Below are positions 37,390 to 63,000 of a stretch of 64,000 bases of DNA, in pieces; within the stretch, counting starts at the first letter, position 1, and each line of letters begins with the position of its first letter. The stretch lies in assembly GCF_053078305.1 (NCBI RefSeq), contig NZ_CP166879.1; one strand, 5' to 3'. A program made the translations under genes and the position numbers. The notes under the pieces are model-generated. The model searched no databases. It had not been told where the DNA came from and saw only the letters and a program-made list of their open reading frames with translations.

Positions 37390-37553
37390 AGCGAGACCAG
37401 TGATTCAAGATGTTCACAGCTGTTTCAGCATACAATAAAAAATATATAAAAATCAACAAAATACACATAAATGCAGTATCAAGATGTTTCGCCTTGTTTC
37501 TGATGATATCATGTTAAATGTGTACCCCACTGTGTACCCAAAAGGCTGAAGAT

Positions 37554-38873
37554 ATGACTTTTACTATTACACAAGACAGACAATTGGCTTCATTGACCGT
37601 TACTAAAGAAGAAAAAGAAATCTTATTTGCTGTAAAATCTAAAGCTGGGGGAGGACTCTTTATACGCGTTCGTTATGGTAGCGACAATAAAAGCTGGATT
37701 TATCGTTATCGAATAGCTCAAAAGCCAGCTAAATTAACACTAGGTAGTTACCCTGCCATGGGATTAGCTCAAGCTCGTAAAGCTCATGCGGATGCAATTG
37801 AATTAGTAAGAAAAGGTATAGATCCTCGTCATATTAGAAAAAATGAAAAACAAAAAAATGAACAAATGATTATTTACTCTGAATTATGGAAAGATTGGAT
37901 AGAATTCAGAAAGACAAGTAAACCAATTAGCACCAGAACCCTTGCAGATTATGAAGGGACTTATCACCGCCACCTTGAAAAAGCATTAGGAAACCTTCGC
38001 ATTGACGAACTTACCAAAAGCGTTATTTTTGAACATCTCAGTAATGTAAGAAAAACCAGTTCTGAAGCAGTTCGTAAAGGATTAATTATTCTAAATATGA
38101 CTCTTGATCATGCCAACTTACAGGGTATGCTTGAGCATAACCCAGCACGACTGCTCAAACCAGCAATGTTTGGTGCATCGATGAATAAACCTCGCGAGCG
38201 ATGGCTTCCTGAGAATGAACTCCGGATGCTATGGAAGGCTTTGGATGATGCTACTGTTGGAGGAGGCTCCATTGCATCTGGTGGCTATGGAATTTCCTCT
38301 AGTGTGGTATTATCTCATTCTGTCGCAAATGCACTCCGTTTGATTATTTTCACAGGAGTGCGCCGCTCTGAAGCGGCACAAATGCGCTGGGATCAAATTA
38401 ATGGAGAGCGTTGGACCATACCAGCCACTAAAAATGGGAAAAGCCATATTGTTACTTTACATCCGTATATGCTTTCTTTAATAAAAACACAACGTGAATT
38501 CACTGAAGGTGCATATGTTTTTGGTTCTACTAGCAAACCTGGCTTTCCCATCACAAATGACGCTCTGACTCGCGCGTTAGAAAGGGTTCGCTCTAAGTAT
38601 CTAGCCGAACTTACTCCATTTTCTCCTCATGATCTGCGTAGAAGTGTTGCGACTGGATGCGCTGAATACCTTGATGCTCCAGAGCGCCTAATAGAGTTAC
38701 TGTTAAATCATGTACCCAAAGACCGTTTAATACGAACATATCAAGTCGGACAACAAGCTGAAAAATTAAAAAATTTATTTATAGAATGGGGGAATTTTAT
38801 TATGAATAACGTCATTACTGTGCAGCAGAATGCTCCGGATAATGTTATTCATATAAAATTTGGGAACAGATGA
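37554..38873 (+). CDS. intF: tyrosine recombinase, P4-like prophage integrase
   Basis: ORF 37518..38873; N-terminal arm-binding/SAM-like region and C-terminal catalytic domain (HDLRRSVATG ... LLNHV... Y); adjacent to tRNA fragment; symbol by analogy to the CP4-6 integrase. Confidence 0.85.
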   Translation: MTFTITQDRQLASLTVTKEEKEILFAVKSKAGGGLFIRVRYGSDNKSWIYRYRIAQKPAKLTLGSYPAMGLAQARKAHADAIELVRKGIDPRHIRKNEKQKNEQMIIYSELWKDWIEFRKTSKPISTRTLADYEGTYHRHLEKALGNLRIDELTKSVIFEHLSNVRKTSSEAVRKGLIILNMTLDHANLQGMLEHNPARLLKPAMFGASMNKPRERWLPENELRMLWKALDDATVGGGSIASGGYGISSSVVLSHSVANALRLIIFTGVRRSEAAQMRWDQINGERWTIPATKNGKSHIVTLHPYMLSLIKTQREFTEGAYVFGSTSKPGFPITNDALTRALERVRSKYLAELTPFSPHDLRRSVATGCAEYLDAPERLIELLLNHVPKDRLIRTYQVGQQAEKLKNLFIEWGNFIMNNVITVQQNAPDNVIHIKFGNR

Positions 38874-41497: not shown

Positions 41498-42145
41498 TCA
41501 GCCGGCGCGCAGACCGGCTTCGGTGAAGGTGTATTTGTTGATGAGAAGGGTCTCATCAACAGCGGCATCTGAGGTCAGCCAGTCATACTCGTTTTCCAGT
41601 TGACGGTACAACCAGAAGGCCAGGTCGCGCAGGGCTTCGCTGACTGCGGCTTCCGCATCGGTTGTCATTACCTGACCAGTCGGACTGTTCCGGGTGACGG
41701 TGATATCCATGCTGTACGGATGGCAGTAGCGTCCCCGGAGATTGATTTCAGCCTGAAGCTGCCAGAAGTTACGTTTCTGCACCACCTGCAGGGCATCCGC
41801 GATACGATGAAGCTCACGGTCCTGCGGGGCATATTCCCGGAGCCTCCTGGCTGTTGCTGACTGCCAGTGCCAGCGTCCTTCAAAACAGGCTCCGTCCCCC
41901 TGGCTGCAGAATCCGCTGAACCAGATGCACGGCTCTTCCATAAACCTGCCACTGCTGAGCCGGAAAACGCGCTGGCGGAGGTCAATTCCGAAAATGCCAC
42001 AGACCGCCCTGAAGTCCTCGTACACGTTTTCATACCAGTTGCTGTCAGAATGGTGCACACGGTACCAGTCGCGGGCTTTTTCCCGTGCAGAAGGGCAGGA
42101 AAGTTCATCCAGCGTATACACTGTGGTGGTGATAATGCTGCTCAT
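41498..42145 (-). CDS. hypothetical 215-aa protein inserted between yeeT-like and cbeA (Trp/Cys-rich)
   Basis: long ORF in the module's transcription direction; not part of the canonical yeeS-yeeT-cbeA-cbtA arrangement; several alternative-frame ORFs overlap so the frame is uncertain. Confidence 0.35.
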   Translation of the reverse strand: MSSIITTTVYTLDELSCPSAREKARDWYRVHHSDSNWYENVYEDFRAVCGIFGIDLRQRVFRLSSGRFMEEPCIWFSGFCSQGDGACFEGRWHWQSATARRLREYAPQDRELHRIADALQVVQKRNFWQLQAEINLRGRYCHPYSMDITVTRNSPTGQVMTTDAEAAVSEALRDLAFWLYRQLENEYDWLTSDAAVDETLLINKYTFTEAGLRAG

Positions 42146-44335: not shown

Positions 44336-44746
44336 AATTTGCTCCTTATCGGTGGTTAAGATTTGCTGGTGTAATAAATGAAAAAGCCACGTCTCCCGGA
44401 GAAGACGCGGCCTGATGGGTGAAATGAATGACGTTTATTGTCTGAGAAGACCGTCACTGGCGAGCCGCGTATTAAGCACCTTTCCGGCATCGGGTTCAGA
44501 ATTCCGGCTGCGCCAGCGTCGCTGACCTTCCGCGTTGCGGATAACCCGACGGAAATGCATTCCCGGGTCATTCTGGATAAACACATTGCGGTAAGCGGTT
44601 ATGACAGCAACCGCCTGCCCGTATGAGAAAGATCCTTCAGCCAGGACATACTCTGTGTAACCCGGCATATCTGTTTTCTCCTGATAAATAAAAAGCCTCT
44701 GCCACGCGTTGTGACAGAGGCTGAAGCATGAAACTGACTTCAGGGA

Positions 44747-45202
44747 TCAGTTAACGTTTTTTCCGGAAACGGTAATCAGCAGTGGATGGTAGTCCTGGGG
44801 ATCGAAAACCGATAACGGCAGACTGACACGATGGCCGTTACTTTCTTCAGTTGCTTTAATGATTTCGGTTGTGGCGATATTTTCCACGCACTCCGTTTCC
44901 AGAAATGCGTCTGTGGTTCGCGTGGCATTACTGTCACCAAAAGCTTCCGTTTCCATTTTTCTGGTCACCAGCGTCTGACCATATTTGTCTTTGAGTTGCA
45001 GAGTGATGGTGAGGGGGCCAAATCCTTCACCGTTTCCGCCATTATCCAGCCGGAACTGGTAAGCACAAATATTTCCCGGGAGCCATATCGTATCTGTATT
45101 GCGTATACTGATGTAACGATGATCCTGTGCCCGGAGTGGGGCAGACCACGTTAACCCCAGAATGAAGGCGGTAATCATGCAGGTTTTGAACAGGTGAATC
45201 AT
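44747..45202 (-). CDS. small secreted/lipoprotein-like island protein
   Basis: 151 aa with N-terminal signal peptide MIHLFKTCMITAFILGLTWSAPLRA. Confidence 0.5.
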   Translation of the reverse strand: MIHLFKTCMITAFILGLTWSAPLRAQDHRYISIRNTDTIWLPGNICAYQFRLDNGGNGEGFGPLTITLQLKDKYGQTLVTRKMETEAFGDSNATRTTDAFLETECVENIATTEIIKATEESNGHRVSLPLSVFDPQDYHPLLITVSGKNVN

Positions 45203-45277: not shown

Positions 45278-47800
45278 TTATGCCGGTAACTCCGGAGGTA
45301 ATGCTTCTTCCAGTCGGTTAACCATATTGCCGAGATGGGATGCATCATATTCCATGACGGGGCGTTGCCTGATGATACTGACCACCAGTGGTTTGATTAA
45401 CATATTGGTCGCGGCCCGTTGTTGTATACCGGCGGCGAAAATGATCTCCAGAGCATTCTGATCGATAACACGGGCCAGATTCTCGTTCAGATTTTCAATC
45501 TCATGTCCGGTCAGCAGGAAACTGCCGGCAAGCCATGTCACCTGCTCCTGAATCATTGCCAGAATTTTGACGCGATCTTCTTCAACCAGCGCTCCGGCAA
45601 TTTTTCCTGATACAGCGGAGGCAATCATTCCCCCCAGAACACCGCCAACCACACGCCCTGTCAGTGCACCAAATGGTCCCAGTGGACTGAACAGTATCCC
45701 GCCCGCCACTGACCCGACAGCTCCACCTGCAACACCGGAAGATGCCACGGCAAGATTCCTGATGAACTGCGTACCGGAGATCCGTCCCCGCAACATTTTG
45801 ATCATGTCAGGGCCGGTTGTGACAGCTACCAGTGCCAGAGATGTCACCAGCGTACCCTTCATCACTTTGTTCAGGGCACTGATATTTCCTGCACCGGTCC
45901 CCTTCTGAAGAGCCAGTCGGACAGTCGGGCTGGCAGTCGAAAAATCAATGTGCTTCAGCATACCCTGAACAACACTGAGCCGGTGGAGTTGCTGGGTTGT
46001 GACGTAGACAGCCAGTGTGCGGGTGAAGGTTTTTCCTGCCTGGACAGCAGCTGTCTGCAGGGCAGCATCGCGATCGCCGGTGCTGAGCCAGAAGACCGAT
46101 GCCGTCAGGGCAAAACTGATCCCTCCGGCCGCCAGACTGACAACCGAACCCTCGGCAATATCATAAGTGACCGATTCGATGGTCCCGAACCGGGTGATAT
46201 TACGGGCCTGAGTATAAGTCAGATGTCCCCGACGAATCAGCCGGGACGCTTCTGCGGGATCGGTTACACCGGGTACTTTACCTTCGCGGATCTTATTCCT
46301 CATGGTTTCAACAGCGCCGGCATACTGATCACGGGGGACTTCCAGTTGCATGGGGCCATTATTTCCCATGTAACGATACTGTCCGTTTTGTCCGTCGAAT
46401 GCCGCACCGACGCTACGGGCTGCAGTTGAACAATATTTCGTCTGGATTTCTGTTCCGCTGACCAGTCTGTCTGCTCCATTTCTGGCATTATTATCACCGA
46501 GGATCCGTGCGTTTTTCAGACGGACTCTGTCGACAATATGGTTTCCCCGTTCAGCGGCAAACCCATGTCCCTGCCCTCCGGAAGCAAACATTTTCTCATT
46601 TGTACTCCAGGTTTCCGGCAGTTTCATGAGAATCAGACCATTCGCCGTTGCATCGGAAATAAAACCGGTGTAAGAACGTTCATAAATGTCCTGACACAGT
46701 GTTTCTGTTTCGCGACAAAGAGAGGAGCAGTACCATTCCGGATCCGGCTTATGATTTTCCGGGGCATGATGTACTTCTGTCAGCCCGCAGGAGGCACAGA
46801 TACGAAGCTCATCCACGTGATGGAATGATAAAAAACGGCGACCTTCTGAAAAGGGATACCAGTCACCGCCGTCCAGGCAACGATCGAGAAAATCGTCATT
46901 CGCTTCCGGTGATAAATTCAGGCGGTTCCGGAAGAGCGTTTTCAGTTCATCAGGTGTGAATGACAGGTTCTCTTTCAACTGTTCGTTAAACCCTGCCATG
47001 TTTCTTTCATACCAGGCATTGTTCAGTAACCAGTTTCCGTCTGCCAGTTCAAATTCCCTCAGCTCTCCCCGGGAAATCCGTTGAGAAATGAGCGTCAGCC
47101 AGATGCGCTCCGTCAGTGAGTCAGGAAGGCTGTAATCGTTTTGCAAACTGGTCAGCCACGATTTACTGTTGAGCACCGGTTGTTCTTCCAGTGTCTGGCT
47201 GATGGCACAGGTCAGTTTTTTCAGCGCCTGGATCTGGCTGGCCGCCCATAGCAGCGTCACTAATGCAGCCAGCCAGTACAACAACCCGCCCCACCACATC
47301 AGTGACGGTGAAATATCGTACTGTAACGCGATCAATGGTGCGCATGCAGAACACGCCATAAGGAAAAAGGCAGTATAAAAACAGCAGTAATACCCGTTAA
47401 TTTCCTTGCTGATATCTTCTGGTGTGATCCCGTTCTGCTGAATGTTTTTGATCTGCAGGGGAACAGCCAGCAGACCACCGGCGAGAGCAGTGGTCAGAAT
47501 AAATTTCACAGAGTCAAAGGTGTGAGCCTCCAGCGCGATATGTTTACCATCAAGTCCCCACATGAAGCTGATGATCATTCCGGCAATCGTCAGAAATACG
47601 CCTGCCAGCCAGCGAATATGGAACAACCGGGTTATGCGTTCGGTGATATAGCCAGCCAGTAAGGCCGGGCCGAACAGACACAGCAATATGAGCCCTGCCA
47701 GCGCAGAAGCCGTGCTGATTAATGCTCTGAACAAAAGGCGAAGAATGGCAAATCCTGCGATCAGCAGGATCAGCGCGCCGACTATCTGTAACATAGTCAC
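45278..47800 (-). CDS. YeeR-like inner membrane protein (840 aa) with N-terminal TM bundle, central Cys4 zinc-ribbon-like motif and C-terminal Gly-zipper segment
   Basis: about 6 N-terminal hydrophobic helices; CASCGL...(18)...CSSLC; Gly-rich GVAGGAVGSVAGGILF...GGVLGGMIASAVSG; position immediately downstream of Ag43 as for yeeR. Confidence 0.55.
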   Translation of the reverse strand: MTMLQIVGALILLIAGFAILRLLFRALISTASALAGLILLCLFGPALLAGYITERITRLFHIRWLAGVFLTIAGMIISFMWGLDGKHIALEAHTFDSVKFILTTALAGGLLAVPLQIKNIQQNGITPEDISKEINGYYCCFYTAFFLMACSACAPLIALQYDISPSLMWWGGLLYWLAALVTLLWAASQIQALKKLTCAISQTLEEQPVLNSKSWLTSLQNDYSLPDSLTERIWLTLISQRISRGELREFELADGNWLLNNAWYERNMAGFNEQLKENLSFTPDELKTLFRNRLNLSPEANDDFLDRCLDGGDWYPFSEGRRFLSFHHVDELRICASCGLTEVHHAPENHKPDPEWYCSSLCRETETLCQDIYERSYTGFISDATANGLILMKLPETWSTNEKMFASGGQGHGFAAERGNHIVDRVRLKNARILGDNNARNGADRLVSGTEIQTKYCSTAARSVGAAFDGQNGQYRYMGNNGPMQLEVPRDQYAGAVETMRNKIREGKVPGVTDPAEASRLIRRGHLTYTQARNITRFGTIESVTYDIAEGSVVSLAAGGISFALTASVFWLSTGDRDAALQTAAVQAGKTFTRTLAVYVTTQQLHRLSVVQGMLKHIDFSTASPTVRLALQKGTGAGNISALNKVMKGTLVTSLALVAVTTGPDMIKMLRGRISGTQFIRNLAVASSGVAGGAVGSVAGGILFSPLGPFGALTGRVVGGVLGGMIASAVSGKIAGALVEEDRVKILAMIQEQVTWLAGSFLLTGHEIENLNENLARVIDQNALEIIFAAGIQQRAATNMLIKPLVVSIIRQRPVMEYDASHLGNMVNRLEEALPPELPA

Positions 47801-47914
47801 TCCGTGATGAATATCATGTTATTGTTAATGCCAGCGAATGTGGCGTTGAAGATCCGTTGCGCCGGTCCGGGTCCCGGTCATGATGACCGGGACCACAGAG
47901 AGGCGATGGTTCTG

Positions 47915-50900
47915 TCAGAAGGTCACATTCAGTGTGGCCTGACCGTTATACCCTTCAGCGCTGCTGCCGCTGACGCTGTGGGCATAACCGGCCTGAACGC
48001 CCAGGGTGATATTTTCCCGGACACGGGCTTCCAGTCCGGCCTGCAGGTCCAGTGACGTGCCATTCCGGGACGGTGAGAACGTCATGTTACTGCCGGCTGC
48101 AGCTGTACCCATGCTCATGTCCCCCCGGGAGCTGAAGGTGCGGATAACAGAAGGTTGTACCCACCAGTTCACAGGCAGTTCACTCACACCGTGTTTTGTA
48201 CTGTCGCGCAGGGTGTCACGGGATGAGGTGCCTTCACCAAAGGTCATATCGTTGTGGCTGCCCAGACGGAAACCGGCACGCACATGTTGTGCACTGCCAT
48301 ACCCGAACTTCACATAACCGGCGTTATCCTGGCCGTCATCCAGGGAGAGTCCCTGCCAGGTGTACTGCAGTTGCGGCTCCAGCATCAGATTGTCAGTGAT
48401 ACTGAAGGGCAGACCGGTTTCCAGCGAACCCAGCCAGCCCCACCCCCGGGCGCGGAAGTCGTTATTGTCCGTTGACGCTTTCATGCTGTGGCGGGTTCCC
48501 AGGGCCACAATGTCAGCCCACAGGCCGGAGGATGTATGTGTCAGATTCAGGTATCCGCCAAGGCTGCCGGCATCATCCCGGACCGTGCCGGCACGGGAGG
48601 CGTCATCATCCTTAACATCAACGGAAGAATGGCCTGCAGCACCATATATCCCTGCGGTCACAGACATACCGGCAACCTCTGTTCTCAGCAGGTCACCCTC
48701 CAGGCGGACGAAGCCATAGCTGCCGCTGCTTTCCGGCGTGGCCCCACGGGCAATACCGCCGTTGTTATCGTGACCGAGATGGCCGCCCTGAATGCTGAGA
48801 CGGACGCTGTTATTTTCACCGTTTACACCGGTCTGATGGCTGCGTGAGCCTGCCAGAATCCGGTCATAGTCCATTGCCTGTGTCAGCATGGAGGCATACA
48901 GGGGGACTTCTGCACGATAAGCATTTTCACTGCGCAGATACCAGCTCTCATCACTGTCCCGGTTGAGGGAGTAGTTAAAGGCACCGGCCTGCAGCCTGTT
49001 CCCCTGGACAAAGGCCCCTTCCTCCGTGGTGGCACCGTTAATGGCTTCCACCACCTGAATACCCTTACCGCTGGTCGCCAGCCCCGACGCACTGTTGCCA
49101 GCGTTCACCAGGTTCAGGATGGTTTTTCCGGTTGCCCTGCCACCGTCAATGACCAGTCTGTCAGCATTGTTCTGTGCCATATCCGGGCGTACACGCAGGC
49201 TGATGGTGCCATTCTGTCCGTTCAGGTTTTTCACTTTCAGGGTTGCCGGTACGAACTTCCCTGTGCGGGTGGAGGTGAAATGAATCTGTCCGGCATGGCT
49301 GAGGTCATCCACCACCGACTGCACCGTGGCGTTATCGGGGATATTCCAGGTGGCACCGGAGGCGAGAGTGACATTCGTGGGGTCAATGGCACCGTTCAGC
49401 ACAGTGCTGCCGGTCAGCTTCAGGGCTGTACCGCGCTGAGCAATGACATCCGTGGTGACGGTACTGTCGTTCAGCGTCAGCGTGCCTTCATTCAGGTTGA
49501 CGGCTTTCTGGGTGAGTGTGGTGTTGCTGACAGTGAGTGTGCCACTTCCTGATTTTTCCACGCTGCCGTTACCGGTGAGAGAGCCTCCCTGCAGGAGTGC
49601 ATCGCCTTCACGGATGGTCAGGGTATCGTTGTTCACCGTCTTCCCGGAAAGGGTAAGTATGGCGCCGTTATTCAGCGTGGTGGTGCCCGCCAGTGTGCCG
49701 CCCCTGGCGGTGAACAGTCCGCCATTTACCGTGGTATCCGTGGCCGTATCACCGGCGTTCAGCGTGAATGAACTGCCTTTTTCCAGCATCAGGGCATCCG
49801 CCTGACCGCCTCCGATACTGAATGCCTTTCCGTCGCTCCGTGTACCACTGACAGCGGCACCGGAATCGGCCAGCAGTACACCGCCATTCCCCATGGATAC
49901 GGTGGTGGCGGCACCACCGTTGCGGACATCCAGCGTTCCGCCATCATCCACACGGGTATTAGTGGCTGTGTGTCCGCTCAGCACATCCAGACGTCCGCCA
50001 TTTTCCAGTACGACATTATCAGCTTTACCCTCCACAACAGAGAATGCTCCCTGGCGGTTTATGCCGGTAACGGTTGCAGCCGTACTGGTAACCAGTGCGC
50101 CGCCCTGCTTCAGGGTGACATTCGTGGCTGTACCACCGGCGTTCACCTGCAGTTTGCCTTTCTGGTTAACGGTGGTGAAATCCGCCAGACCACCTTCCTT
50201 GACAATCTGCCAGCCGTCACTGTTTACAACCGTGTCAGAGGCTGTGCCTCCGTTGTGCACATACTGGTAACCGCCATTCAGTGTGGTATCCAGCGCATGC
50301 CCGTGTACCGTCTGGTCGCCGCCGGCATAAACCACAGTGGTATTTGCTGTTCCTTCAGCAGCCACAATCTGACGACCATTTTTATTGATAGTGGTACGTA
50401 CGGCATTTCCGCGAACAAACTGCCCGGTATCACCATTTTCTGCATCTGGTCCCCCTTCCGCGCCGGTATTCACAACCGTGTCGGTTGCCATTGCGCCGGA
50501 TTTGACGGCCTGCCAGCCCTTCTCATTAATGACGGTACCCGTTGCAATCCCGCCTTCATGTACCCACTGCTCACCGCCGTTCAGAGTGGTGTTCACTGCC
50601 TGCCCCTGAAGGCTCTGTCCGCCTCCGGCACTGATAACCGTGTCTGAAACACTTCCGCCGGGATTCACTCTCTGAAGACCACCACTGGTGACAGTCGTTT
50701 TGTTGGCTGTACCGCCATCCTGTACCCATTGACCGCCGGTATTGGCCTCATTGTCCGGCCCGTACTCCAGCCCGGTACTGATGGTCATTCCGTTGGTCAT
50801 ACCGAAGACAATCTGGTTGTCATGATTTGTCAGTGTTCCGCCGCTCACGGTTTCTCCCGCCTGTACAACCGTGTCAGCAGCCAGTGCCGGGACTGATGTG

Positions 50901-51034
50901 ACAGCAGCAAGAGACAGCGCAACCGCCACTCCGGCGCGTTTTCCCCGTGAGCGGGCCAGTTCGGAGGCCACCACCAGGGTGCCCGTAATGTGATTCCATA
51001 CCAGCCTGTAGCTGGTGTTCAGATGTCGTTTCAT
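47915..51034 (-). CDS. flu: Antigen 43 (Flu) self-associating autotransporter adhesin
   Basis: ORF 47915..51190; 1039 aa from MKRHLNTSYRLVWNHITGTLVVASELA extended signal peptide, passenger beta-helix repeats, C-terminal beta-barrel ending in aromatic residue. Confidence 0.9.
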   Translation of the reverse strand: MKRHLNTSYRLVWNHITGTLVVASELARSRGKRAGVAVALSLAAVTSVPALAADTVVQAGETVSGGTLTNHDNQIVFGMTNGMTISTGLEYGPDNEANTGGQWVQDGGTANKTTVTSGGLQRVNPGGSVSDTVISAGGGQSLQGQAVNTTLNGGEQWVHEGGIATGTVINEKGWQAVKSGAMATDTVVNTGAEGGPDAENGDTGQFVRGNAVRTTINKNGRQIVAAEGTANTTVVYAGGDQTVHGHALDTTLNGGYQYVHNGGTASDTVVNSDGWQIVKEGGLADFTTVNQKGKLQVNAGGTATNVTLKQGGALVTSTAATVTGINRQGAFSVVEGKADNVVLENGGRLDVLSGHTATNTRVDDGGTLDVRNGGAATTVSMGNGGVLLADSGAAVSGTRSDGKAFSIGGGQADALMLEKGSSFTLNAGDTATDTTVNGGLFTARGGTLAGTTTLNNGAILTLSGKTVNNDTLTIREGDALLQGGSLTGNGSVEKSGSGTLTVSNTTLTQKAVNLNEGTLTLNDSTVTTDVIAQRGTALKLTGSTVLNGAIDPTNVTLASGATWNIPDNATVQSVVDDLSHAGQIHFTSTRTGKFVPATLKVKNLNGQNGTISLRVRPDMAQNNADRLVIDGGRATGKTILNLVNAGNSASGLATSGKGIQVVEAINGATTEEGAFVQGNRLQAGAFNYSLNRDSDESWYLRSENAYRAEVPLYASMLTQAMDYDRILAGSRSHQTGVNGENNSVRLSIQGGHLGHDNNGGIARGATPESSGSYGFVRLEGDLLRTEVAGMSVTAGIYGAAGHSSVDVKDDDASRAGTVRDDAGSLGGYLNLTHTSSGLWADIVALGTRHSMKASTDNNDFRARGWGWLGSLETGLPFSITDNLMLEPQLQYTWQGLSLDDGQDNAGYVKFGYGSAQHVRAGFRLGSHNDMTFGEGTSSRDTLRDSTKHGVSELPVNWWVQPSVIRTFSSRGDMSMGTAAAGSNMTFSPSRNGTSLDLQAGLEARVRENITLGVQAGYAHSVSGSSAEGYNGQATLNVTF

Positions 51035-51214
51035 CAGCTTTTCCTTAGATTGAGGGTGAATAAAAAAGCCGGTACCCACAAACGTGGATACCGGCAGGTA
51101 AAGGGTTACAGTGCCGGAGGTCCGGCTGTGGGAGTTTCTGAATTGTGGTTCTGTTGTTCCCTGAATGTCTTTCTGTACGTATCTGTGCATGTTACTGACA
51201 AAGGTTATTATTAG

Positions 51215-51361: not shown

Positions 51362-52234
51362 TCAGAAGAAAATCCAGTTCCATACCGCACGGGCAACAGA
51401 GACCACCGTGTTACGAACAGCGCGCAGGGCCGTACGGACAACAGAGGCAACACAGACGCTCTCCGCTGTGTCAAATATCCGGTCCACCGCACCGGTAAAC
51501 TGTTCACGGGCCTGAGACCGGACAGATTCCGTGCGCAGCTCGTCCTGCAGTCGGGTCATCAGGGGACTGGCGGCATGGTCGGGAAGCGCTGTCATGAGCG
51601 CACTGACCAGCGTATCCAGTTCCCAGCCGGTGCGGGCCGATACGGCCACAACCGGATGTACGGGCCGGAACAGACGGAATACCGCCTCCGTTTTTTCGCG
51701 AATATTCTGTGCCTGTGCAGGAGAAGGCTGAATACCGGCCATATCCCATTCATGGCAGGGCTCCGTTTTGTCGGCCTGCGTCACCACAAACAGCACCTGC
51801 TGATGTCCGCACTGCAGGATGTGTCGCCAGAAATACTCATCCACAGACAGGGCACGGTCATCGGCTTTAATCAGCCACAGTACCAGGTCAAGTTCAGGCA
51901 GAATGTCACGGTACAGGGCTTCATACTCAGCATCCCTGTCCCGGCTCTCGCCCACCCCGGGCAGGTCAGTGATAACCATGCTGTGACCATGGCCACTCAG
52001 ACGGAAGCGCTGCACTTCCCGGGTGCCAGCGTGAACATCACTGACCGGGGTGACCTCCCCCTGAAACAGTGCATTACAGAGTGAGGATTTACCGGCCCCG
52101 CTTTTACCCATAATGCCAATCACGGGTTCGTGGCTGGTGAGTTTGCGCAGATGTTCCAGGATGTGACGGGAAAGTGAATAAGGCAGGGAGGAGAGTGGTT
52201 TTTCAATTGCCTCAATGGCATCAGACGGATTCAT
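51362..52234 (-). CDS. yeeP: YeeP/YkfA-like island GTPase
   Basis: ORF 51362..52297; Walker A GKSGAGKSS, G3 DLPG, NKxD-like TQADK; start assigned to MNPSDAIE. Confidence 0.8.
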   Translation of the reverse strand: MNPSDAIEAIEKPLSSLPYSLSRHILEHLRKLTSHEPVIGIMGKSGAGKSSLCNALFQGEVTPVSDVHAGTREVQRFRLSGHGHSMVITDLPGVGESRDRDAEYEALYRDILPELDLVLWLIKADDRALSVDEYFWRHILQCGHQQVLFVVTQADKTEPCHEWDMAGIQPSPAQAQNIREKTEAVFRLFRPVHPVVAVSARTGWELDTLVSALMTALPDHAASPLMTRLQDELRTESVRSQAREQFTGAVDRIFDTAESVCVASVVRTALRAVRNTVVSVARAVWNWIFF

Positions 52235-52543
52235 ACATGTATTCCCGGTGAAAAAAAGACAAAACCCCGCGCACCGGAAAGGTGGCGGGGGACTCACGGA
52301 GATAATATATGTCTGAAATTATTTTGATTGTATGGTGTCATGAGATAGCTGAAACCGAGCTATGGATATGCAAATAATAACCTACAGTTTCCGGTTTGAG
52401 GATCGATGAAATCGTTGATTAATGTTAATATACCGCCAATTTTTCAGCGTTCTGATTCTTTCAGTGAATCAACGTATTGGGCTTCCCTGATAGCTGAACG
52501 CTTTAACTTACAATGCTCAGAATTGATAAGAAAAAAGGAATAT

Positions 52544-54667
52544 ATGTCCAGGCTGACTGATTTAATAGCTAAAGCGAAGGCCAAAGACCCACAGTTGGGC
52601 GCTGACCTGGATCGAGAAATCAAGATCCTATCATCACGACTTCCCTTTGGTCTTAATTTCGAACGACATAGCCCTGAAGTTGTCGAGTTGCCATTGCGGC
52701 CTATTCGAAAGGGAGACAAGGTTCGCGTTCTGCCGGAGCGTGGCTCCCCTAAGAAAGGCGATCAGCGGCTATGGCAGGTGAAAGCCATCAACAAGGCGAA
52801 AAAAAACGCTGATATCGAATTGCTGGATACAGTTGTTGTCGAGACTCAGACTGTAGCGCTGAACGATCTTGTCGTTATAGCTGAATTTCGTGACACCATC
52901 TGGCCAGGTCTGGTCAGTACGGGAAAAGTACAGCGCGGTGGTGATAAGCCTTTTCACTCGGTCATTAATGGCGAAAACTATCATGTGCTGAAAGCATTGA
53001 CCTACACGCATAGAGGCAAGGTGGATGCCATTTATATCGATCCTCCGTATAACTCGGGAGCTAAAGACTGGAAATACAATAACGATTACGTTGAGAAGGA
53101 CGATTTATATCGCCACAGTAAATGGTTGGCCTTTATGGAACGCCGCTTGTTGGTAGCTAAAGAGTTACTAAATCCTGCCGACTCAGTTCTCATCATCGCT
53201 ATTGATGAGAAAGAATATTTACGACTTGGGCTATTACTCGAACAAGTGTTCCCAGAGGCCAGTATTGAGATGGTAACGTCTGTGGTAAATCCCCGTGGTC
53301 GTCATCGCCCTGGAAGGTTTGCCCGGTCGGACGAATATGTCTTTTTTGTTCTGTTTGGAAAAGCAACAGTTGGACAAGAGTTAGATCCAGACTTTGCCGG
53401 AGGCAGCCAAGTCCCATGGAGGACCCTGAGACGAAGTGACGCTGCGTCGGCACGAGGTAAGCCAAAAGGCGGTACGGCTCAATTTTATCCGATCTACGTA
53501 AACAGCAATGGAGAAATTGAAGAAATAGGTACACCACTACCGCATGGAATTCCACGTAATACAGTCCAAGAGCGTGAAAATTGTGTTGCAGTATTTCCAA
53601 TACGCGACTCAGGACTTGAAATGAACTGGGGATTAACCTCTTCAGCTCTTAAGGCAATCCACGCTAAAGGCTATGTACGCGTTGGTCGCAGCACGCCTAA
53701 TAAGCCACAAAAATGGGAAATATCATATCTGACATCTGGCAAAATAGATGATATAGAGAGCGGGCGTGCAACTATTGTTGGGCATAATTCTGATGGAAGT
53801 GTTAAAGCGGAATACATTGCGGATAAGTTGAAAACGCCAACCTCAACGTGGATGAGAATCTCTCACAATGCAGAAACAGGTGGAACAAATCTGCTGAAAG
53901 CTCTGTTGCCTGATCGCCGATTTCCTTTCCCAAAATCACTGTATGCAGTTGAAGATGCACTCCGTTTTTTTATTTCAGCAAAAAAAAATGCTGTAGTAGT
54001 AGATTTCTTCAGTGGCTCAGGAACAACCGCCCATGCAGTCATGCGTCTGAACAAACAGGATGGTGGTCGCCGCCAGTGCATCTCCATCACGAACAATGAA
54101 GTCGCTGCCAGCGAACAAAAACAGTTGCGTGAACAGGGGTTACGCCCCGGAGATCCCGAATGGGAAAAATGGGGGATCTGTGATTACATCACAAAGCCGC
54201 GTGTACAGGCAGCTATAACAGGCAAGACACCTGAAGGAGAACCGATTGATGGCGACTATAAGTTTATCGACGAGTTCCCAATGTCTAAAGGCTTTGAGGA
54301 AAACGCTGAATTCTTTACCCTGACTTACGAAGCTGAAAAATCGGTTAGCCATAACCTTGCCTATGCGCGCATTGCGCCGTTACTGTGGTTACGTGCGGGT
54401 GCTCGTGGCAAATGTATTGACAGACTGCCTGCTGAAGGATGGGCGGTGGCTGATACTTATGGCCTGCTATCGGCTGTGGATCAGGCCACGCCTTTCATTG
54501 AAGCCATTAGCCATGCCAGTGACGTACGGGTGGCCTTTATCGTCACTGACGATGACCGCCACTTTCAAGCTGTCACGAGGCGTCTGCCAAAAGGTGTTGA
54601 ACCGGTACGTTTGTACGAATCGTATCTGACCAATTTCAGCTTTACCAATGGGGAATGGACAGAATGA
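52544..54667 (+). CDS. mod: Type III restriction-modification Mod subunit (beta-class N6-adenine DNA methyltransferase)
   Basis: ORF 52406..54667; AGGA RBS before ATG at 52544; motif IV DPPYN precedes motif I FFSGSGTT (beta order); flanking blocks resemble EcoP15I-type Mod as recalled from memory. Confidence 0.8.
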   Translation: MSRLTDLIAKAKAKDPQLGADLDREIKILSSRLPFGLNFERHSPEVVELPLRPIRKGDKVRVLPERGSPKKGDQRLWQVKAINKAKKNADIELLDTVVVETQTVALNDLVVIAEFRDTIWPGLVSTGKVQRGGDKPFHSVINGENYHVLKALTYTHRGKVDAIYIDPPYNSGAKDWKYNNDYVEKDDLYRHSKWLAFMERRLLVAKELLNPADSVLIIAIDEKEYLRLGLLLEQVFPEASIEMVTSVVNPRGRHRPGRFARSDEYVFFVLFGKATVGQELDPDFAGGSQVPWRTLRRSDAASARGKPKGGTAQFYPIYVNSNGEIEEIGTPLPHGIPRNTVQERENCVAVFPIRDSGLEMNWGLTSSALKAIHAKGYVRVGRSTPNKPQKWEISYLTSGKIDDIESGRATIVGHNSDGSVKAEYIADKLKTPTSTWMRISHNAETGGTNLLKALLPDRRFPFPKSLYAVEDALRFFISAKKNAVVVDFFSGSGTTAHAVMRLNKQDGGRRQCISITNNEVAASEQKQLREQGLRPGDPEWEKWGICDYITKPRVQAAITGKTPEGEPIDGDYKFIDEFPMSKGFEENAEFFTLTYEAEKSVSHNLAYARIAPLLWLRAGARGKCIDRLPAEGWAVADTYGLLSAVDQATPFIEAISHASDVRVAFIVTDDDRHFQAVTRRLPKGVEPVRLYESYLTNFSFTNGEWTE

Positions 54668-57237
54668 AATTTACTCTCAAAGGTTATCAGCGCGATGCTG
54701 TACATGATGCTCTGGCAAATCTCAGGAAGGCTCGCCGTTACTGGCATAACGAGAGCGACAAAAGCGCCTTCTCTTTAACTGCTGTAACCGGTGCAGGTAA
54801 GACCGTCATGGCTGCTGCTGTATTTGAAGCATTATTTCATGGCGACGATGAATTTAATTTCGATGCAGATCCCGGTGCGGTAGTGATCTGGTTTAGTGAC
54901 GACCCTGCACTGAACGAGCAAACCCGCTTTCGCTTGATGGAAGCGAGTGACCGTATCAACTACAACGATATGGTGGTAGTTGAACATCCCTTCAGTCGGC
55001 GTAAGTTCCAGGCCGGAAAAATCTATTTTCTTAACACGCAGAAGTTTGGCAAGAATAGTCTGTTAGTACGCGGATTCGATGATAAAGGCGGGCTTTTCGA
55101 GGCAACCCCTGATGCACAGGCTTATACACTGTGGGATACCATCCAGAATACCATCGAAGACCCAGATCTGACTCTCTATCTAGTACTGGACGAAGCGCAC
55201 AGGGGGATGGGGTCGTCAACGCCTTCCGGTGAAGTTGCTAAGAGTACTATTGTGCAACGTCTAATCAATGGTTCGGCTGGAGTGAAAGGTATTCCAGTAG
55301 TGTGGGGTATTTCTGCCACAGTTGAACGTTTCGACAATGCCATTGCCAATGCCGGTCATCATGTCAAACTGCCGAACGTGGTGGTTGACTCAGCTAAAGT
55401 GCAGGAATCGGGACTTATCAAGGACGATATCATTCTGGGTGTGCCTGATGAAGCTGGTGACTTCGATACAGTGTGGGTACGCCGTGCTGCCGACAAACTC
55501 AGGGAAGCGAGCGATGCCTGGGCTGAGTACGCAAGGCAGCAGGAAACCGTACACGAAGTAGTGCCTCTGATGGTATTCCAGGTTCCCAATATGCCAGATC
55601 CGAACGAGGTCGGACACTGGCTGGATACGTTATTCTCCCGTTATCCTGAATTGCCCATTGACAGTGTTGCTCATGTCTTCGGTGAACACACCACACAACG
55701 TTTCGGCCGACATCAGGTGCCTTATATTGAACCGCAGCGGGTGCAGGAATCAACTTGGGTGCGCGTATTGATTGCTAAAGATGCTATCAGCACTGGCTGG
55801 GATTGCCCACGTGCCGAAGTAATGGTTTCCTTCCGTGCAGCCAGCGACAGGACGCATATTACGCAATTGTTGGGGCGTATGGTACGTACTCCATTGGCGA
55901 GACGTATTCCGGGTAATGAGCGTTTAAACTCTGTAGAATGCCTATTGCCCAAGTTTAATACCAATACCGTGAGAGATGTCGTCAATACCTTGTTTAAGGG
56001 CGATGATACCTCTCCTCCAAGTGGACGCATCCTGGTTAACCCTGTGGAGATGAAACCTAACCCGGCTGCTTCAGCTGAAGTATGGGAAGCATTTGAAGCG
56101 CTACCTTCGCAAACCCGCCCACAGAAAGGAGCCAGACCCGCCAGACGTCTGACCGCGCTGGCACAAGAACTGGTTGATGACGGAATTCTTGATGGGGCAG
56201 TCAGGAAAGCCCATGCTGCGTTGCACGCGGTCTTGGACAAATACCAGACAGAAAATGCCGAGAAAATCAAAAACAAACGCAATGCAGTGCTCGTCGTAGA
56301 TGGTAAGGCCTTGGTTGCCAGCCTAAAGAACAAAGCTATGACCTTCAACGAATTCTGGGAAGAGGCGGATGTAGCGGTGATTGATGACGCATACCGGCGT
56401 GCAGCCCGAATCTTCAGCCCAGATGTTTCACGTACCTATGTCGAATATCTGGCCGATAAGGTTGCGGATAGAGAAGATGATGCTGAGGAATATCTGGAAG
56501 CAATCATGGAAGCTCGTGTGACCGTTGCTGGTTTGGGGCTAGTGATGGAGGTGCAGGATTACTTCGATGCTGAAGCCGATAAACTGACGAAGGCGTGGTT
56601 GGTCGTGTACACACCACAGATCAAGTCTTTGAAAGATGAGCGTAAAGAGGCTTACCGTCAAATCGTCGAAATGAGTACCAAACCGCAGGATGTGGATCTG
56701 GTCAGGCCAGAGAACAAGTTTGAAATGACCAGTGTGCGTGAAGGTGAGAAGGAAACTAACCTTCCAGTCTGGAAACACCATTTGTTGTGTGACAAAAGTG
56801 GGAACTATCCGGCTCAGTTTAACCATTGGGAAACCAAGGTTTTTGAGATCGAAACCAAACGTGAAGGATTTGCTTTCTGGTATCGTAATCCACAGTACAC
56901 AGGGCAATCGTCACTGGGAATCGCCTATGTTGAAGCCGAACAGTACAAAATTGTTCGTCCCGATTTCCTGTTCTTTGCCGAACAGGATGGTAAAATGGTT
57001 GTGGATCTTGTAGATCCTCATGGCCTACATTTGGCTGATGCTTTGCCCAAACTGAAAGGAATTGCTTTATATGCCGAACAGCATTCTGATGCTTACAGGC
57101 GAATTGAATCTGTCGCCGAAGTAAAGGGGAAATTACGAGTGTTAGATTTGAAACGGCAGGATGTACAGGATGCTGTTGCTAACGCTGAAAATGCAGAAAC
57201 GTTATTTAGTAGCGGACTTGCTAATGACTACCTGTAA
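54655..57237 (+). CDS. res: Type III restriction enzyme Res subunit (SF2 helicase plus C-terminal nuclease-like region)
   Basis: 860 aa; Walker A TGAGKT, DEAH box LVLDEAH, motif VI QLLGRMVRT; overlaps mod stop by 13 nt; C-terminal region has candidate D...ExK nuclease residues (VFEIETK). Confidence 0.7.
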   Translation: MDRMKFTLKGYQRDAVHDALANLRKARRYWHNESDKSAFSLTAVTGAGKTVMAAAVFEALFHGDDEFNFDADPGAVVIWFSDDPALNEQTRFRLMEASDRINYNDMVVVEHPFSRRKFQAGKIYFLNTQKFGKNSLLVRGFDDKGGLFEATPDAQAYTLWDTIQNTIEDPDLTLYLVLDEAHRGMGSSTPSGEVAKSTIVQRLINGSAGVKGIPVVWGISATVERFDNAIANAGHHVKLPNVVVDSAKVQESGLIKDDIILGVPDEAGDFDTVWVRRAADKLREASDAWAEYARQQETVHEVVPLMVFQVPNMPDPNEVGHWLDTLFSRYPELPIDSVAHVFGEHTTQRFGRHQVPYIEPQRVQESTWVRVLIAKDAISTGWDCPRAEVMVSFRAASDRTHITQLLGRMVRTPLARRIPGNERLNSVECLLPKFNTNTVRDVVNTLFKGDDTSPPSGRILVNPVEMKPNPAASAEVWEAFEALPSQTRPQKGARPARRLTALAQELVDDGILDGAVRKAHAALHAVLDKYQTENAEKIKNKRNAVLVVDGKALVASLKNKAMTFNEFWEEADVAVIDDAYRRAARIFSPDVSRTYVEYLADKVADREDDAEEYLEAIMEARVTVAGLGLVMEVQDYFDAEADKLTKAWLVVYTPQIKSLKDERKEAYRQIVEMSTKPQDVDLVRPENKFEMTSVREGEKETNLPVWKHHLLCDKSGNYPAQFNHWETKVFEIETKREGFAFWYRNPQYTGQSSLGIAYVEAEQYKIVRPDFLFFAEQDGKMVVDLVDPHGLHLADALPKLKGIALYAEQHSDAYRRIESVAEVKGKLRVLDLKRQDVQDAVANAENAETLFSSGLANDYL

Positions 57238-59610: not shown

Positions 59611-60048
59611 TTAAAGACTATCGTCGTAGGGTGCTTCAGTCAGAATCTTTTGAATTTCATGTCGTGCTTTTAGCTCCCATGAAAGATTCATATTTGCCAT
59701 TAACTCAATAAATTTTGGAAACGCGATACGTCGTCCATCTCTGCCTTCCACCCTGTGTTCTAACTCATATTGAAATGCTATCTTATAAGCGAGTTCTGAC
59801 ATGATCCAATAAAGTAGCTCATCTAGCGAACTAGTTACCTTCCGCGAGAATTCATAACCTCTTTCTGAATGAATGTAATTATATACATTGTTTTCAAATG
59901 TAACATATGGTGTGCCATCACCAATTGGAGCAGAACAAAGATTAACTGAATATCTTGAGAGACCAGCTTTCAAAGTCAATGCGTCAATTTTTTTTTGTAT
60001 TTCATTGATATTCAACAACATGTTAGCGAACCTCACGAATATATCCAT
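59611..60048 (-). CDS. cdiI: CdiI-type immunity protein cognate to the CdiA C-terminal toxin
   Basis: 145-aa ORF immediately downstream of, and overlapping, the cdiA stop; low-GC relative to cdiA body; alternative start 60021 one nt after cdiA stop. Confidence 0.6.
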
Positions 60049-63000
60049 TCTTTAATAGCCATTCCACATTCACTCGTTCTTGCATATTAGGTAATATTTG
60101 AATCCCCCCTCCAGGCTCACCAAAAGCGGGGGCAATCTTTCCTTGTATAGCAGGCAATGGTTTTATTACCTCATATTCATAGTATTTTTCAGCTTTAGTT
60201 CCTGGCGCTAGAGCTCGTTGTTCGTAAGGAGTACCTTTAGGAGCAAGGAAAGAGCCAGTAGGCTCACCATATCTATCTAGGCGTGTGCCTACCGGAATTA
60301 TAGTTTTGATTGGATCACCTTCAAACCCCAAATTCTTGGGCCAATCCCACCCACCATTAGCATTCTTGAATTTGTCGTAGTAAGAATAGCCTCCGGCTTC
60401 AGCATCTGTAATTGCACTTGAAGAGTTAGGGTTTTTAGATACGCTTTCTTTAACGATACCTTGGCCTAATACACTGATTTTATTAGCTGCCGCAGCACCT
60501 AACACTGGCGTCATTGATGCCGCTACAGTCTTCATCCCGTCATAGGTTTCGACGTAGCTTTCAGCCGTCGCTTTATCCACACCGAACTGCGTCATAGCAT
60601 AGTTTACCATTGCATCTTTCACCTGCTGCTGATTTTGTGCATCAACACTGGTGATATTCAGCAGGTTTACTATCTGCCCGTAAGCATCCGGATACATATC
60701 GCTGACTTGGTTATTGTAGTTTCCGGTTTCATAACCTCCTTTAGCAGCAATAACCCTCAGTCTTTCACCGGCACAAGCCACGCTGGCTGCCTGTCCATTA
60801 CTGCATGCAGCGATTACCGCCTTATCACTGCTGATATCTTTTTCAAGCAATGCATCATATTTCTGCTGCGCCTTTTCGCGCTCTGCCGGATCTTTACTGT
60901 TTTTAAGCGTCTGTTTTGCTATCTCAAGCTCTGTCTTTTCAGACACGCTAAGATAATTATTCTCAACCGAGTTCCTGCCTGCCTGTGCCCCCGTACCGGC
61001 AGCACTTGTACTGTTGCCGGCAAGCCCGCCCGCAATACCCGAGGCAATGGTGGCCAGCATGCTGATTTGCTGACGTTCCTGTTCACTCAGGCTATCGGTA
61101 CGACCACCATAGTAGTTATCAATGATATACCGGGCTGCAAGTTCACCGCTGAATGCCCCTGCAGCACCGGAAGCCGCATTGTTTCCGCCCAGTTGTGCGG
61201 CAAGCGCTCCCCAGACTGCGTGAGCCATCAGGTTTGCTTCCCGGTTATCGCCTGTGGCCTGTTTTATAAGCTGTGCCACTGCCGGATTCAGACCGCCAGC
61301 CAGTACCTGCCCCGGATTCCCTGCATTCAGTCCGCCCAGCACGCCCGTGATGGCCTGTACCACCATCTGCGGCGTACTGCCCGTACCGTAGCCTTTCATG
61401 ACCTCTCTGTATTCCGGGGTCTCCCGCAACTGTGCATCGCTCATGCCAGGATGCTCTTTCCTGGCTGCTTTCATCGCTTCAGTTTCGCCATACGTCATGA
61501 CGATGTTACTCATCTGACCGCTAATCTGGCTGATAACCTGCGCTTCCTGCAGACGCTTCTGCTCTTTCTCCCTGTCAAATATCGGTGCAATGCTGCCGTT
61601 GGCGTTTTCCGGGTCCCGGCTGAGCCCGGCAATATCCTGCTTCTGACTCTCATTATCACGGATAATGAGATTTCCGCCGCTGATGGCGGATGACGTGGTA
61701 CCTTCAGCATGTCCACTGCTGCCGGACATACCGGTAAGTGCGTTCGCCGCACCGGCTATTGCATTTGAGGCCACCATCTGGCTGGCTGACATCCCTGAGC
61801 CACCCGATAAACTGATTCCGGTATGGCTGGCTTTATAGTCTGCCTGGTTATGGATATCCGACCAGCCCAGCGTGTTGGTATTGAGGCTGTTTTTGTCATC
61901 CGTTGCCGTGGACGCAATTACCGCACCATTGAGCTGAGTGTGATTCCCAACAGTGACATCAAACCCGTCTTTTCCGGCGTAGATACCACTCTGTTCCCGG
62001 ACAGAATCGTAATTGCTTTTAATTTTGTCCTGACTGATGCTGGCATAGCCGCTGCCGGACATTGAGCCAAACGTGAAGCTTCCACCTGCAGCCACGCTGT
62101 TCTGTCTGCTGTCGTAACGGTCGCTGTCCTGAAGGCTCGAAATGGTCAGGTTATTCCCCACATCCGCTGTGACTTTCTCACCACTGACCTGAGCCCCCGA
62201 CAGGGTGGTATCATGTCCGCTTGTGAGGGAGACATTTTTACCCGCATCCAGCATGGTTTCGGTCCAGGTCGTGCCGTTGCCTTTCTCCCTGCCCTCTGAA
62301 CCATTGATACCGGCGAAGATACTGAGGCCTCCGCCATTGGTTCCACCACCAAAGCTGACGCCCACGCCGCCACCTTTGCTGCTGTTCTTCCCGGTTGTCT
62401 GTCGGGTGTCAGCGGCGGCAGCCAGCAGAATATCGTTCTGTGCATTCAGGCTGGTGTCATTGCCGGACTTAATCTGGCTCCCGGTAATGAGAATATCGCC
62501 GCTGTTGTTATGGTCCTTATTTTTCCCCGTGGCAGTGACGGAGACATTGTTACCGGCGCTGAGGGTTGAGCCGGAGACGATATCGTGCTGATATTTCGTC
62601 TCAGACTTCGACTGCTGATGGTTGAGCGAAATGCTCACGCCGATACCATTATTCGGGTCAGCACTCTGTTGCTGCAATCCGTGGTTAACACTGGCCTGTA
62701 CACCGGACAGAACCGCCTGTGTTCCTTTCAGTGCCGCCAGACGGCTGTCGCTGGTTTCTTTCGCCTCCCGGGCCATGGTGGCAGCATTATTGATGGCACT
62801 GCCCACCGTGCCGGAAAGGGCAACCGTCAGCCCGCTTTTCTTCTGCTCAAATTTTTCGTCCACAGTACGACGGTCATGCCCCGGGTCAACCACCACACTG
62901 TCACCGGTAATGCTGATATCACGGTTCGCAATCACATCCGAACCGCTGATATGAGCCTGTTTGCCCGCGGTAATACTGACATTACCGGCAGTGGAGCCGA

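Follow-up and report, generated by a model that had tools for sequence, protein, structure and literature searches.

In a 64,000-nucleotide (nt) stretch of Escherichia coli DNA (NCBI RefSeq assembly GCF_053078305.1, contig NZ_CP166879.1; hereafter the window), the full-length gene at 45278..47800 on the minus strand is the intact yeeR of the published agn43-yeeR-irmA operon. The gene is already annotated; what is new here is the proposal, moderately well supported, that its product holds a PD-(D/E)xK core with an invariant constellation of residues inside a conserved membrane architecture, which is related to the candidate system PDC-M09 and sometimes encoded next to it. [quoted passage not shown] A first-pass annotation, made from the letters of the window alone, had described an 840-amino-acid (aa) YeeR-like membrane protein of an island family. 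It is accurate so far as it goes, but it missed the key domain, aa ~405-545, and tied the family too closely to the Ag43 island.

The conserved core of YeeR

In an alignment of 41 homologues (A1), conservation is highest not in the transmembrane, zinc-ribbon or glycine-zipper parts of YeeR but at aa ~405-545. This core (aa 405-545; 46166..46588, minus strand) carries the signature GHGFAAE...D...G...NGADR.V.G..IQTKY...Y...LEVP.DQY. Specifically, residues E417, D424, D444, Q453, Y477 and E487 are invariant in all 311 unique core sequences, K455 is present in 310 of the 311, and H412 is present in 304.

Enzymes of the PD-(D/E)xK superfamily share an α/β core with a central mixed sheet in α-β-β-β-α-β order. 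An acidic residue at the start of β2, a (D/E)xK motif on β3 and, often, a glutamate in α1 occupy the positions used for catalysis. The structural model of the YeeR core, with a predicted local distance difference test (pLDDT) score of 84, has an αβββαβ topology (H14-29, E34-36, E48-50, E53-57, H63-68, E88-91 and H93-108) and reproduces this arrangement. In the model, E417 is located in α1, D444 at the start of β2, Q453-x-K455 on β3 and E487 on β4, and the superfamily motif is present with Q in place of D/E. The invariant residues of the model are thus positioned at the catalytic positions of the superfamily, suggesting a candidate active site composed of E417, D444, Q453 and K455, with H412 and E487 as further members of the candidate constellation. 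We consider the PD-(D/E)xK fold of the core likely, and would place actual nuclease activity slightly above an even proposition.

Several results weigh against a nuclease reading of the core. Foldseek searches with the core return the same kind of protein as top matches, but none is significant, and the core has no Pfam, NCBIfam or PDB sequence or profile match to nuclease families. Searches of 43 core sequences against Pfam at E values up to 10 gave no consistent family, and a core profile search against PDB gave chance-level L7Ae matches only. Q453 occupies the usual D/E position; glutamine at this position is tolerated in Mrr-type enzymes. An alternative is that the fold assignment is wrong, and that the core is a new α/β domain with another chemistry or ligand in which the E/D/QxK pattern is coincidental. 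The insignificant Foldseek matches and the absent profile-level links fit this alternative, as do the further invariant or near-invariant residues H412, D424, R445 and Y477, which are untypical of the superfamily (E487 is a further extra position). However, the order of the invariant residues and their placement on α1, β2 and β3 match the canonical arrangement, and we regard a wrong assignment as improbable.

The YeeR core has no profile link to PD-(D/E)xK superfamily members such as Hjc, NucS, type II and type IIS restriction enzymes, CdiA-CT, HamA and VRR-NUC. It is unlike them in being flanked by two membrane modules, in having Q at the D/E position and in having extra invariant residues. 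The D...QxK motif prompted a comparison with Mrr. Compared by eye, K-12 Mrr, a type IV restriction enzyme, has a layout like that proposed for YeeR: its nuclease core, with an FE helix, GxD and (V/I)Q(A/T)K, is preceded by a winged-helix DNA-binding region. Mrr is soluble, whereas YeeR is membrane-anchored. We rejected Mrr membership because hhalign of the core against the Mrr_cat alignment gave a probability of 0.1%, in a comparison whose power is limited by the low diversity of both alignments. This result also counts against nuclease activity, and YeeR has no Mrr_cat Pfam match. For the whole protein, Pfam, NCBIfam and PDB sequence searches gave nothing useful, the sole match being a sub-threshold hit of C19orf12 on the glycine zipper, and a PHROGs search gave only a compositional tape-measure match. 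The first-pass annotation had said that homology to a characterised enzyme family would overturn its description; such a relation appears at the level of fold, and not at the level of sequence.

Membrane modules and putative nucleic-acid-binding arm

The predicted order of elements along YeeR is approximately six transmembrane helices, two winged-helix-like units, a four-cysteine zinc ribbon, the PD-(D/E)xK core, a four-segment glycine-zipper module and a helical C-terminus (all on the minus strand). AlphaFold modelled the full-length protein with a mean pLDDT of 79; confidence is very high over aa 1-340, fair in the core and low over aa 660-740.

The N-terminal membrane module (aa 1-190; 47231..47800) is composed of approximately six hydrophobic helices, identified from hydropathy, both of YeeR itself and of the family alignment, and modelled by AlphaFold with pLDDT >90. 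The segments lie at ~aa 6-24, 31-49, 65-83, 95-113, 140-158 and 170-188, in agreement with the multi-transmembrane region proposed at first pass, and K/R-rich loops are located at aa 53-64 and 189-215. This module is restricted to the 'long' family members (~820-850 aa).

The next segment, aa ~207-330 (46811..47182), is predicted to be cytoplasmic and to form two tandem winged-helix-like units, with an H-H-β-β pattern occurring twice at pLDDT 89-95. Foldseek searches with the full model matched only tandem winged-helix proteins over this segment, and the best PDB matches were ESCRT-II subunits, STIV F93 and the winged helices of SelB (probability 0.92-0.99, with weak E values of 0.07-0.45). 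We make the tandem winged-helix assignment with weak to moderate confidence.

The winged-helix-like units are followed by a zinc-ribbon or treble-clef-like motif (aa 332-375; 46676..46807), C335-x2-C338-x19-C358-x3-C362, which the first-pass annotation had recognised. The pattern CxxCG...EWxCSxxCxxTE is conserved across the long-form homologues of the alignment, and the four cysteines probably bind zinc. TRASH/YHS/FCS zinc ribbons have the spacing C-x2-C-x19-22-C-x3-C, into which C335, C338, C358 and C362 fit. A TRASH/YHS/FCS identity was nevertheless rejected for want of a Pfam match, as no Pfam model matched YeeR aa 190-400 or a homologue with six copies of the motif. In that homologue, from Riflebacteria (L048:581-2671), the N-terminus comprises approximately six tandem CxxC...FCSxxC copies of the motif that is single in YeeR. 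A search for the winged-helix/zinc-ribbon module joined to other effector domains returned YeeR fragments only.

The C-terminal membrane module (aa 548-736; 45593..46159) comprises four hydrophobic segments in the family hydropathy profile, at ~552-570, 646-666, 685-705 and 712-733. The second and third segments are separated by a stretch that includes a conserved polar motif, RGRISGxQFxKN (aa 671-682), of which S675 and Q678 are invariant and K681 and N682 near-invariant in the alignment. The last two segments form a putative glycine-zipper hairpin (aa 683-735; 45596..45754). Here, repeated (G/A/S)xxx(G/A/S)xxx(G/A/S) motifs, 14 of them overlapping within aa 684-735, occur in a stretch that is hydrophobic family-wide, bearing out the glycine-zipper-like stretch of the first-pass annotation. 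The zipper has a weak hidden Markov model (HMM) match to C19orf12 and low pLDDT, and homologues match the C-terminus of LeoB/LeoBC weakly. A C-terminal helical domain (aa 740-840; 45281..45583) follows, with invariant D742 and R813 (alignment A1) and AlphaFold helices at pLDDT 70-85. Because the model is poor here (pLDDT 34-51 over aa 671-740), the C-terminal segments may be either true transmembrane helices or re-entrant hairpins; the resulting uncertainty in the number and type of membrane segments weighs against the tethered-nuclease reading.

Comparison of lengths across 332 family members indicates which parts belong together. Lengths downstream of the core show a sharp peak at 280-320 aa, and the membrane module is therefore obligatory, while the N-terminal part is variable. 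In approximately one third of the members the core is preceded by no more than 20-60 residues, approximately one quarter have the YeeR-type N-terminus of ~390 aa, and the N-termini of the remaining members are varied, with Sel1 repeats among them and, in one lineage, six zinc-ribbon motifs in tandem. Many relatives are only 470-630 aa long, starting just before the core and sharing all that follows. Across bacteria, the core and the ~300-aa C-terminal membrane module are conserved together as one unit.

The short members also bear on topology. Because their pre-core stretch is short and has no hydrophobic leader in the alignment, we infer that the core must be cytoplasmic. The even number (six) of N-terminal transmembrane segments of the long form and its K/R-rich inner loops agree with a cytoplasmic core, and the N-terminal module probably has an N-in/C-in topology.

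The strong conservation of the C-terminal membrane module suggests that it does more than anchor the protein, and it may position or gate the nuclease. The same conservation could hint at an abortive-infection effector, in which the glycine-zipper module kills by pore formation or membrane disruption and the nuclease-fold core, instead of being the main effector, binds foreign nucleic acid as a sensor or regulator. In favour of this alternative, the C-terminal module is as obligatory as the core, the invariant polar residues S675, Q678, D742 and R813 exceed the needs of a passive anchor, and the glycine-zipper segments resemble the LeoB/LeoBC C-terminus and also occur in PDC-M09A and PDC-M09B. 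Surroundings with WYL regulators and many toxin-antitoxin genes would also suit a tightly controlled toxic gene. On the other hand, the complete and essentially invariant constellation of catalytic type favours catalysis over binding alone, and Pfam, PDB sequence and Foldseek searches revealed no resemblance to a characterised pore-former. In addition, oxyR mutants co-express yeeR with Ag43 without reported toxicity (PMC4807369; PMC8614746). We consider abortive infection unlikely.

yeeR in the agn43-yeeR-irmA operon

The open reading frame (ORF) list contains an 840-codon ORF with a GTG start at 45278..47800 on the minus strand, as the first-pass annotation had stated. An ATG at 47794 is preceded by GGAG with a spacing of 5 nt, and the upstream GTG overlaps this GGAG. 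RefSeq gives 838 aa and the product name 'YeeR family protein' for the same gene. Because of the position of GGAG before the ATG and the RefSeq length, the yeeR coding sequence is most likely 45278..47794, encoding 838 aa.

The first operon gene, agn43 (47915..51190, minus strand), encodes the Ag43 autotransporter (Pfam AIDA, AC_1, Autotransporter and ESPR) and ends 115 nt upstream of yeeR, which confirms the slot downstream of Ag43 named at first pass. The final operon gene, irmA (44747..45202, minus strand; Pfam IrmA PF18673, E 2.1e-38), lies 75 nt downstream of yeeR. A perfect hairpin with 12-bp arms, the inverted repeat GGTCCCGGTCAT-c-ATGACCGGGACC, lies in the spacer that separates agn43 from yeeR (47870..47894, minus strand). 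It has no T-run and is therefore not an intrinsic terminator, and a terminator scan of the agn43-yeeR spacer found none. Past irmA, the scan identified a terminator-like hairpin (44694..44722, minus strand) with a 12-bp stem, seven GC pairs and the T-run tail TTTTATTTAT, at which the operon likely ends. Because the spacer lacks a terminator and a terminator-like hairpin follows irmA, the window sequence is consistent with read-through transcription from agn43 through yeeR to irmA.

These features agree with the literature, in which agn43-yeeR-irmA is a co-transcribed operon repressed by OxyR, and YeeR is described as uncharacterised (PMC4807369; PMC9431211; PMC8614746). The first-pass annotation had likewise called the function of the protein unknown, as does the published account (PMC4807369). 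Ag43 undergoes Dam/OxyR-controlled phase variation, and yeeR shares agn43 transcription (PMC9431211; PMC4807369; PMC8614746). Induction of yeeR was 4.6-fold, against 63.6-fold for flu (PMC8614746). The inverted repeat at 47870-47894 might act in RNA processing, RNA stability or attenuation, and may relate to an induction of yeeR far below that of flu.

The position in the operon raises the alternative that YeeR is an accessory factor of Ag43 or IrmA, acting in export, aggregation or biofilm formation, and the assay proposed at first pass, deletion followed by Ag43-dependent aggregation, implied such a role. The conserved agn43-yeeR-irmA order and the OxyR co-regulation are consistent with it. 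However, K-12 aggregates through Ag43 although its yeeR is truncated or a pseudogene (PMC8614746), IrmA is released without Ag43 or YeeR (PMC4807369), and the family occurs in many phyla with Ag43 not nearby. This alternative is already largely refuted, and we regard an accessory role as very improbable.

Alleles and distribution of the family

YeeR belongs to the YeeR family by 99.8% DNA identity to a gene annotated 'YeeR family protein' in RefSeq, and by the presence of PF27347 (YeeR_C); identical DNA at the 99.8% level occurs in other E. coli. The YeeR-like label of the first-pass annotation is thereby upheld. PF27347 is carried by the 99%-identical cluster P0001 and by all homologues, and DNA identity to genes labelled 'YeeR family protein' or 'hypothetical protein' is 97-99.8%. 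Matches occur in 2582 of 5426 complete E. coli genomes, 1800 of which contain at least 80% of the gene (>=80%), and the YeeR protein cluster has 15,556 member sequences. Given the size of this cluster and the number of matching genomes, conservation of the ORF is far beyond chance.

K-12 yeeR, in CP4-44, belongs to the same gene family and occupies the same place behind agn43 as the window gene. However, only its first 1527 nt match, at 99.5% identity, indicating that it is a deletion remnant; the encoded protein stops at ~aa 509, without the end of the core and without the entire C-terminal membrane module. Some genomes contain a yeeR pseudogene deleted at the N-terminus. Rare alleles in E. 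coli have lost internal segments in frame at short repeats, each such allele being represented by a single sequence. The deletion in P0003 (746 aa) removes aa 395-483, which coincide exactly with the putative α1-β3 catalytic part; that in P0021 (558 aa) removes aa 246-521, comprising the winged helices, zinc ribbon and core.

Beyond E. coli, a profile search of 1.84 billion representatives identified 1068 proteins at E <= 0.001, counted as representatives at 50% identity. A genome scan identified YeeR_C members in Proteobacteria, Clostridia, Bacilli, Negativicutes, Riflebacteria, Chlamydiae, Cyanobacteria, Acidobacteria and others, and core identity is 50-60% across more than 10 phyla. In the genome scan and neighbourhood survey, Ag43 was not found near YeeR_C genes outside E. 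coli. The tie to the Ag43 island therefore holds in E. coli, where the gene stands behind Ag43, and not for the 1068 representatives, which are spread over many phyla without Ag43 nearby. Because the distribution is patchy and island-borne and cross-phylum identity is very high, horizontal spread of an accessory function is suggested. A phage or plasmid origin was rejected because few records match: 1 of 50,697 among phages and 11 of 72,556 among plasmids, seven of the 11 being E. coli records of 1.0-4.9 Mb.

Genomic context and relation to PDC-M09

To describe the neighbourhood of the family, ±5 genes were clustered at 80 YeeR_C loci. The recurrent neighbours were WYL regulators, which lie five or fewer genes away (<=5) in 15 of the 80 loci, small lineage-specific ORFs, and PDC-M09AB. 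Specifically, the YeeR gene immediately follows WYL-PDC-M09A-PDC-M09B in Enterobacter, Serratia and some E. coli, the arrangement with M09A and M09B before YeeR being found only at loci L011, L015, L016 and L093. In the window, the upstream gene is Ag43, and neither M09A nor M09B is present.

Sequence comparison also connects YeeR with this system. Short homologues match the PADLOC PDC-M09B HMM co-linearly over their whole length, with E values of 1.9e-8 to 9e-6, and YeeR itself matches partially at E 4.8e-6, compared with 1.9e-212 for a true M09B. An hhalign comparison with PDC-M09B is co-linear over 351 columns (E 0.0035) and pairs ADRLVSGTEIQTKY with ADYKIDGIEVQSKF, and EVPRD with HIPKD. 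YeeR is thus distantly similar to M09B but is a separate third gene, not M09B itself. At the PDC-M09 locus of E. coli ET896, the third gene encodes an unrelated 346-aa protein.

Other YeeR_C neighbourhoods include an integrase island with Azaca ZacA and BrxE, a CAP12-TIR protein with HicAB, a PIN toxin with a methyltransferase, TIR and T5orf172 proteins, HepT/MNT pairs, a Dsr1-like SIR2 protein, and integrases with a relaxase. The yeeR of the window belongs to a CP4-type island bounded by an integrase, which also contains CbtA/CbeA, RadC, antirestriction and DUF932 genes, a Type III Mod/Res-like pair and a CdiA-CT/immunity pair. These contexts, with the near absence of the family from phage records, point to defence or mobile islands, and outside E. 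coli YeeR_C is mostly a single gene in mobile, defence-rich islands.

The contextual argument has limits that weigh against a defensive reading. No universal partner gene was found among the 80 loci, and loci L095 and L009 have ordinary neighbours and no defence genes. PDC-M09 is itself a candidate system only, and we found no paper testing it. Such observations leave room for an alternative in which the fold is right and the protein is not a defence nuclease, being instead a membrane-tethered factor that binds or processes DNA or RNA for the island or the cell, for example in DNA tethering, repair or membrane-located RNA turnover. The homologues among housekeeping genes are compatible with such a factor, as is an island backbone with genes of plasmid leading-region type (antirestriction, DUF932 and RadC). 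Against it stand the patchy, island-borne distribution with very high cross-phylum identity, the adjacent PDC-M09AB and WYL regulators, and the frequent disruption of yeeR in E. coli, for example in K-12, without obvious cost. To a non-defence factor we assign a low probability.

A tethered-nuclease model for YeeR

A known defence system illustrates how a tethered nuclease could act. SNIPE is a membrane-bound anti-phage nuclease that cuts phage DNA during injection; it becomes toxic and attacks the chromosome once its membrane anchor is removed, and confinement prevents self-cleavage (bioRxiv 10.1101/2025.11.03.685801). SNIPE consists of one transmembrane helix, DUF4041 and a GIY-YIG nuclease (10.1101/2025.11.03.685801) and is not homologous to YeeR, which has ~6 + 4 hydrophobic segments, winged-helix/zinc-ribbon units and a core of PD-(D/E)xK fold. 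The Pfam domains of SNIPE are absent from YeeR, and the nuclease fold is different.

In the tethered-nuclease model, the membrane would hold YeeR with its core facing the cytoplasm, and the winged-helix/zinc-ribbon arm would bind nucleic acid beside the membrane. A metal-dependent site formed by E417, D444, Q453 and K455 would cleave the bound nucleic acid, possibly assisted by H412 and E487. By analogy with SNIPE, membrane confinement would keep YeeR away from the chromosome, and its action would therefore be directed at phage or conjugative DNA entering through the envelope. YeeR would then serve in defence or exclusion as part of the cargo of the island. In E. coli, yeeR would be read through from the phase-variable agn43 promoter, and YeeR would therefore be made only in Ag43-ON cells. 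The literature contains no experiments on YeeR function, which weighs against this model together with the points raised above.

A broader proposal, which we put forward as rather doubtful, is that YeeR_C constitutes a widespread, hitherto unrecognised, mostly single-gene immune or exclusion system in which the membrane module places or gates the nuclease at the point of passage of foreign DNA through the inner membrane. It would be an independent second solution of the SNIPE kind, with the E. coli copy switched together with Ag43 phase and with PDC-M09 as a multi-gene relative.

Other features of the island

A tyrosine integrase gene (37518-38873, plus strand) marks the island boundary beside core genes (the ecp, pao and ykg region), and the island therefore extends from ~37.5 kb to beyond the window end. 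A 215-aa ORF (41498-42145, minus strand), flanked by a YeeU-like antitoxin gene and DUF987/RadC, gave no match in Pfam or PADLOC; its equivalents in related islands are labelled 'hypothetical' or 'antitoxin of toxin-antitoxin stability system'.

On the other side of agn43, the YeeP GTPase gene (51362-52297, minus strand) shows weak matches to the dynamin-like defence proteins LeoBC (E 1.6e-8) and LeoA (E 3.4e-4). PDC-M09A likewise matches LeoBC, and in the YeeR_C homologues P0087, P0105, P0108, P0118 and P0082 the C-terminal part matches the LeoB/LeoBC C-terminus with E values down to 4e-6. YeeR itself has no match to Leo proteins at E <= 0.1. The Leo matches may represent a shared membrane-hairpin module or mere composition. 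A pairing of YeeR with the YeeP GTPase was set aside, as no GTPase neighbour recurs across the family.

Beside YeeP, the region 52406-57237 (plus strand) contains a Type III methyltransferase gene (PADLOC MTase_III, E 1.4e-290) overlapping the start of a gene for an 860-aa DEAD/DEAH helicase with only weak REase_III matches (E 4.6e-9). The two are a probable Type III-like restriction-modification pair (Mod/Res-like). Near the end of the window are an Imm63-family immunity gene (59611-60048, minus strand) and the toxin C-terminal part of cdiA (within 59611-64000, minus strand), which continues past the window end. A near-identical genome has this toxin labelled as a tRNA nuclease.

Implications for YeeR biology

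YeeR is a long-standing uncharacterised E. coli 'y' gene present in about half of the complete E. coli genomes, and uropathogens co-express it with the adhesin Ag43 and the immune-mimic IrmA. Because yeeR is truncated in K-12, experiments in K-12 cannot address intact YeeR. A concrete mutable site, E417, D444, Q453 and K455, together with the tethered-nuclease model, makes the function of YeeR directly testable. If YeeR is defensive, ~1000 clusters (at 50% identity, from many phyla) would join the small set of envelope-located nucleases, and phase variation of aggregation in E. coli would be linked to resistance against foreign DNA.

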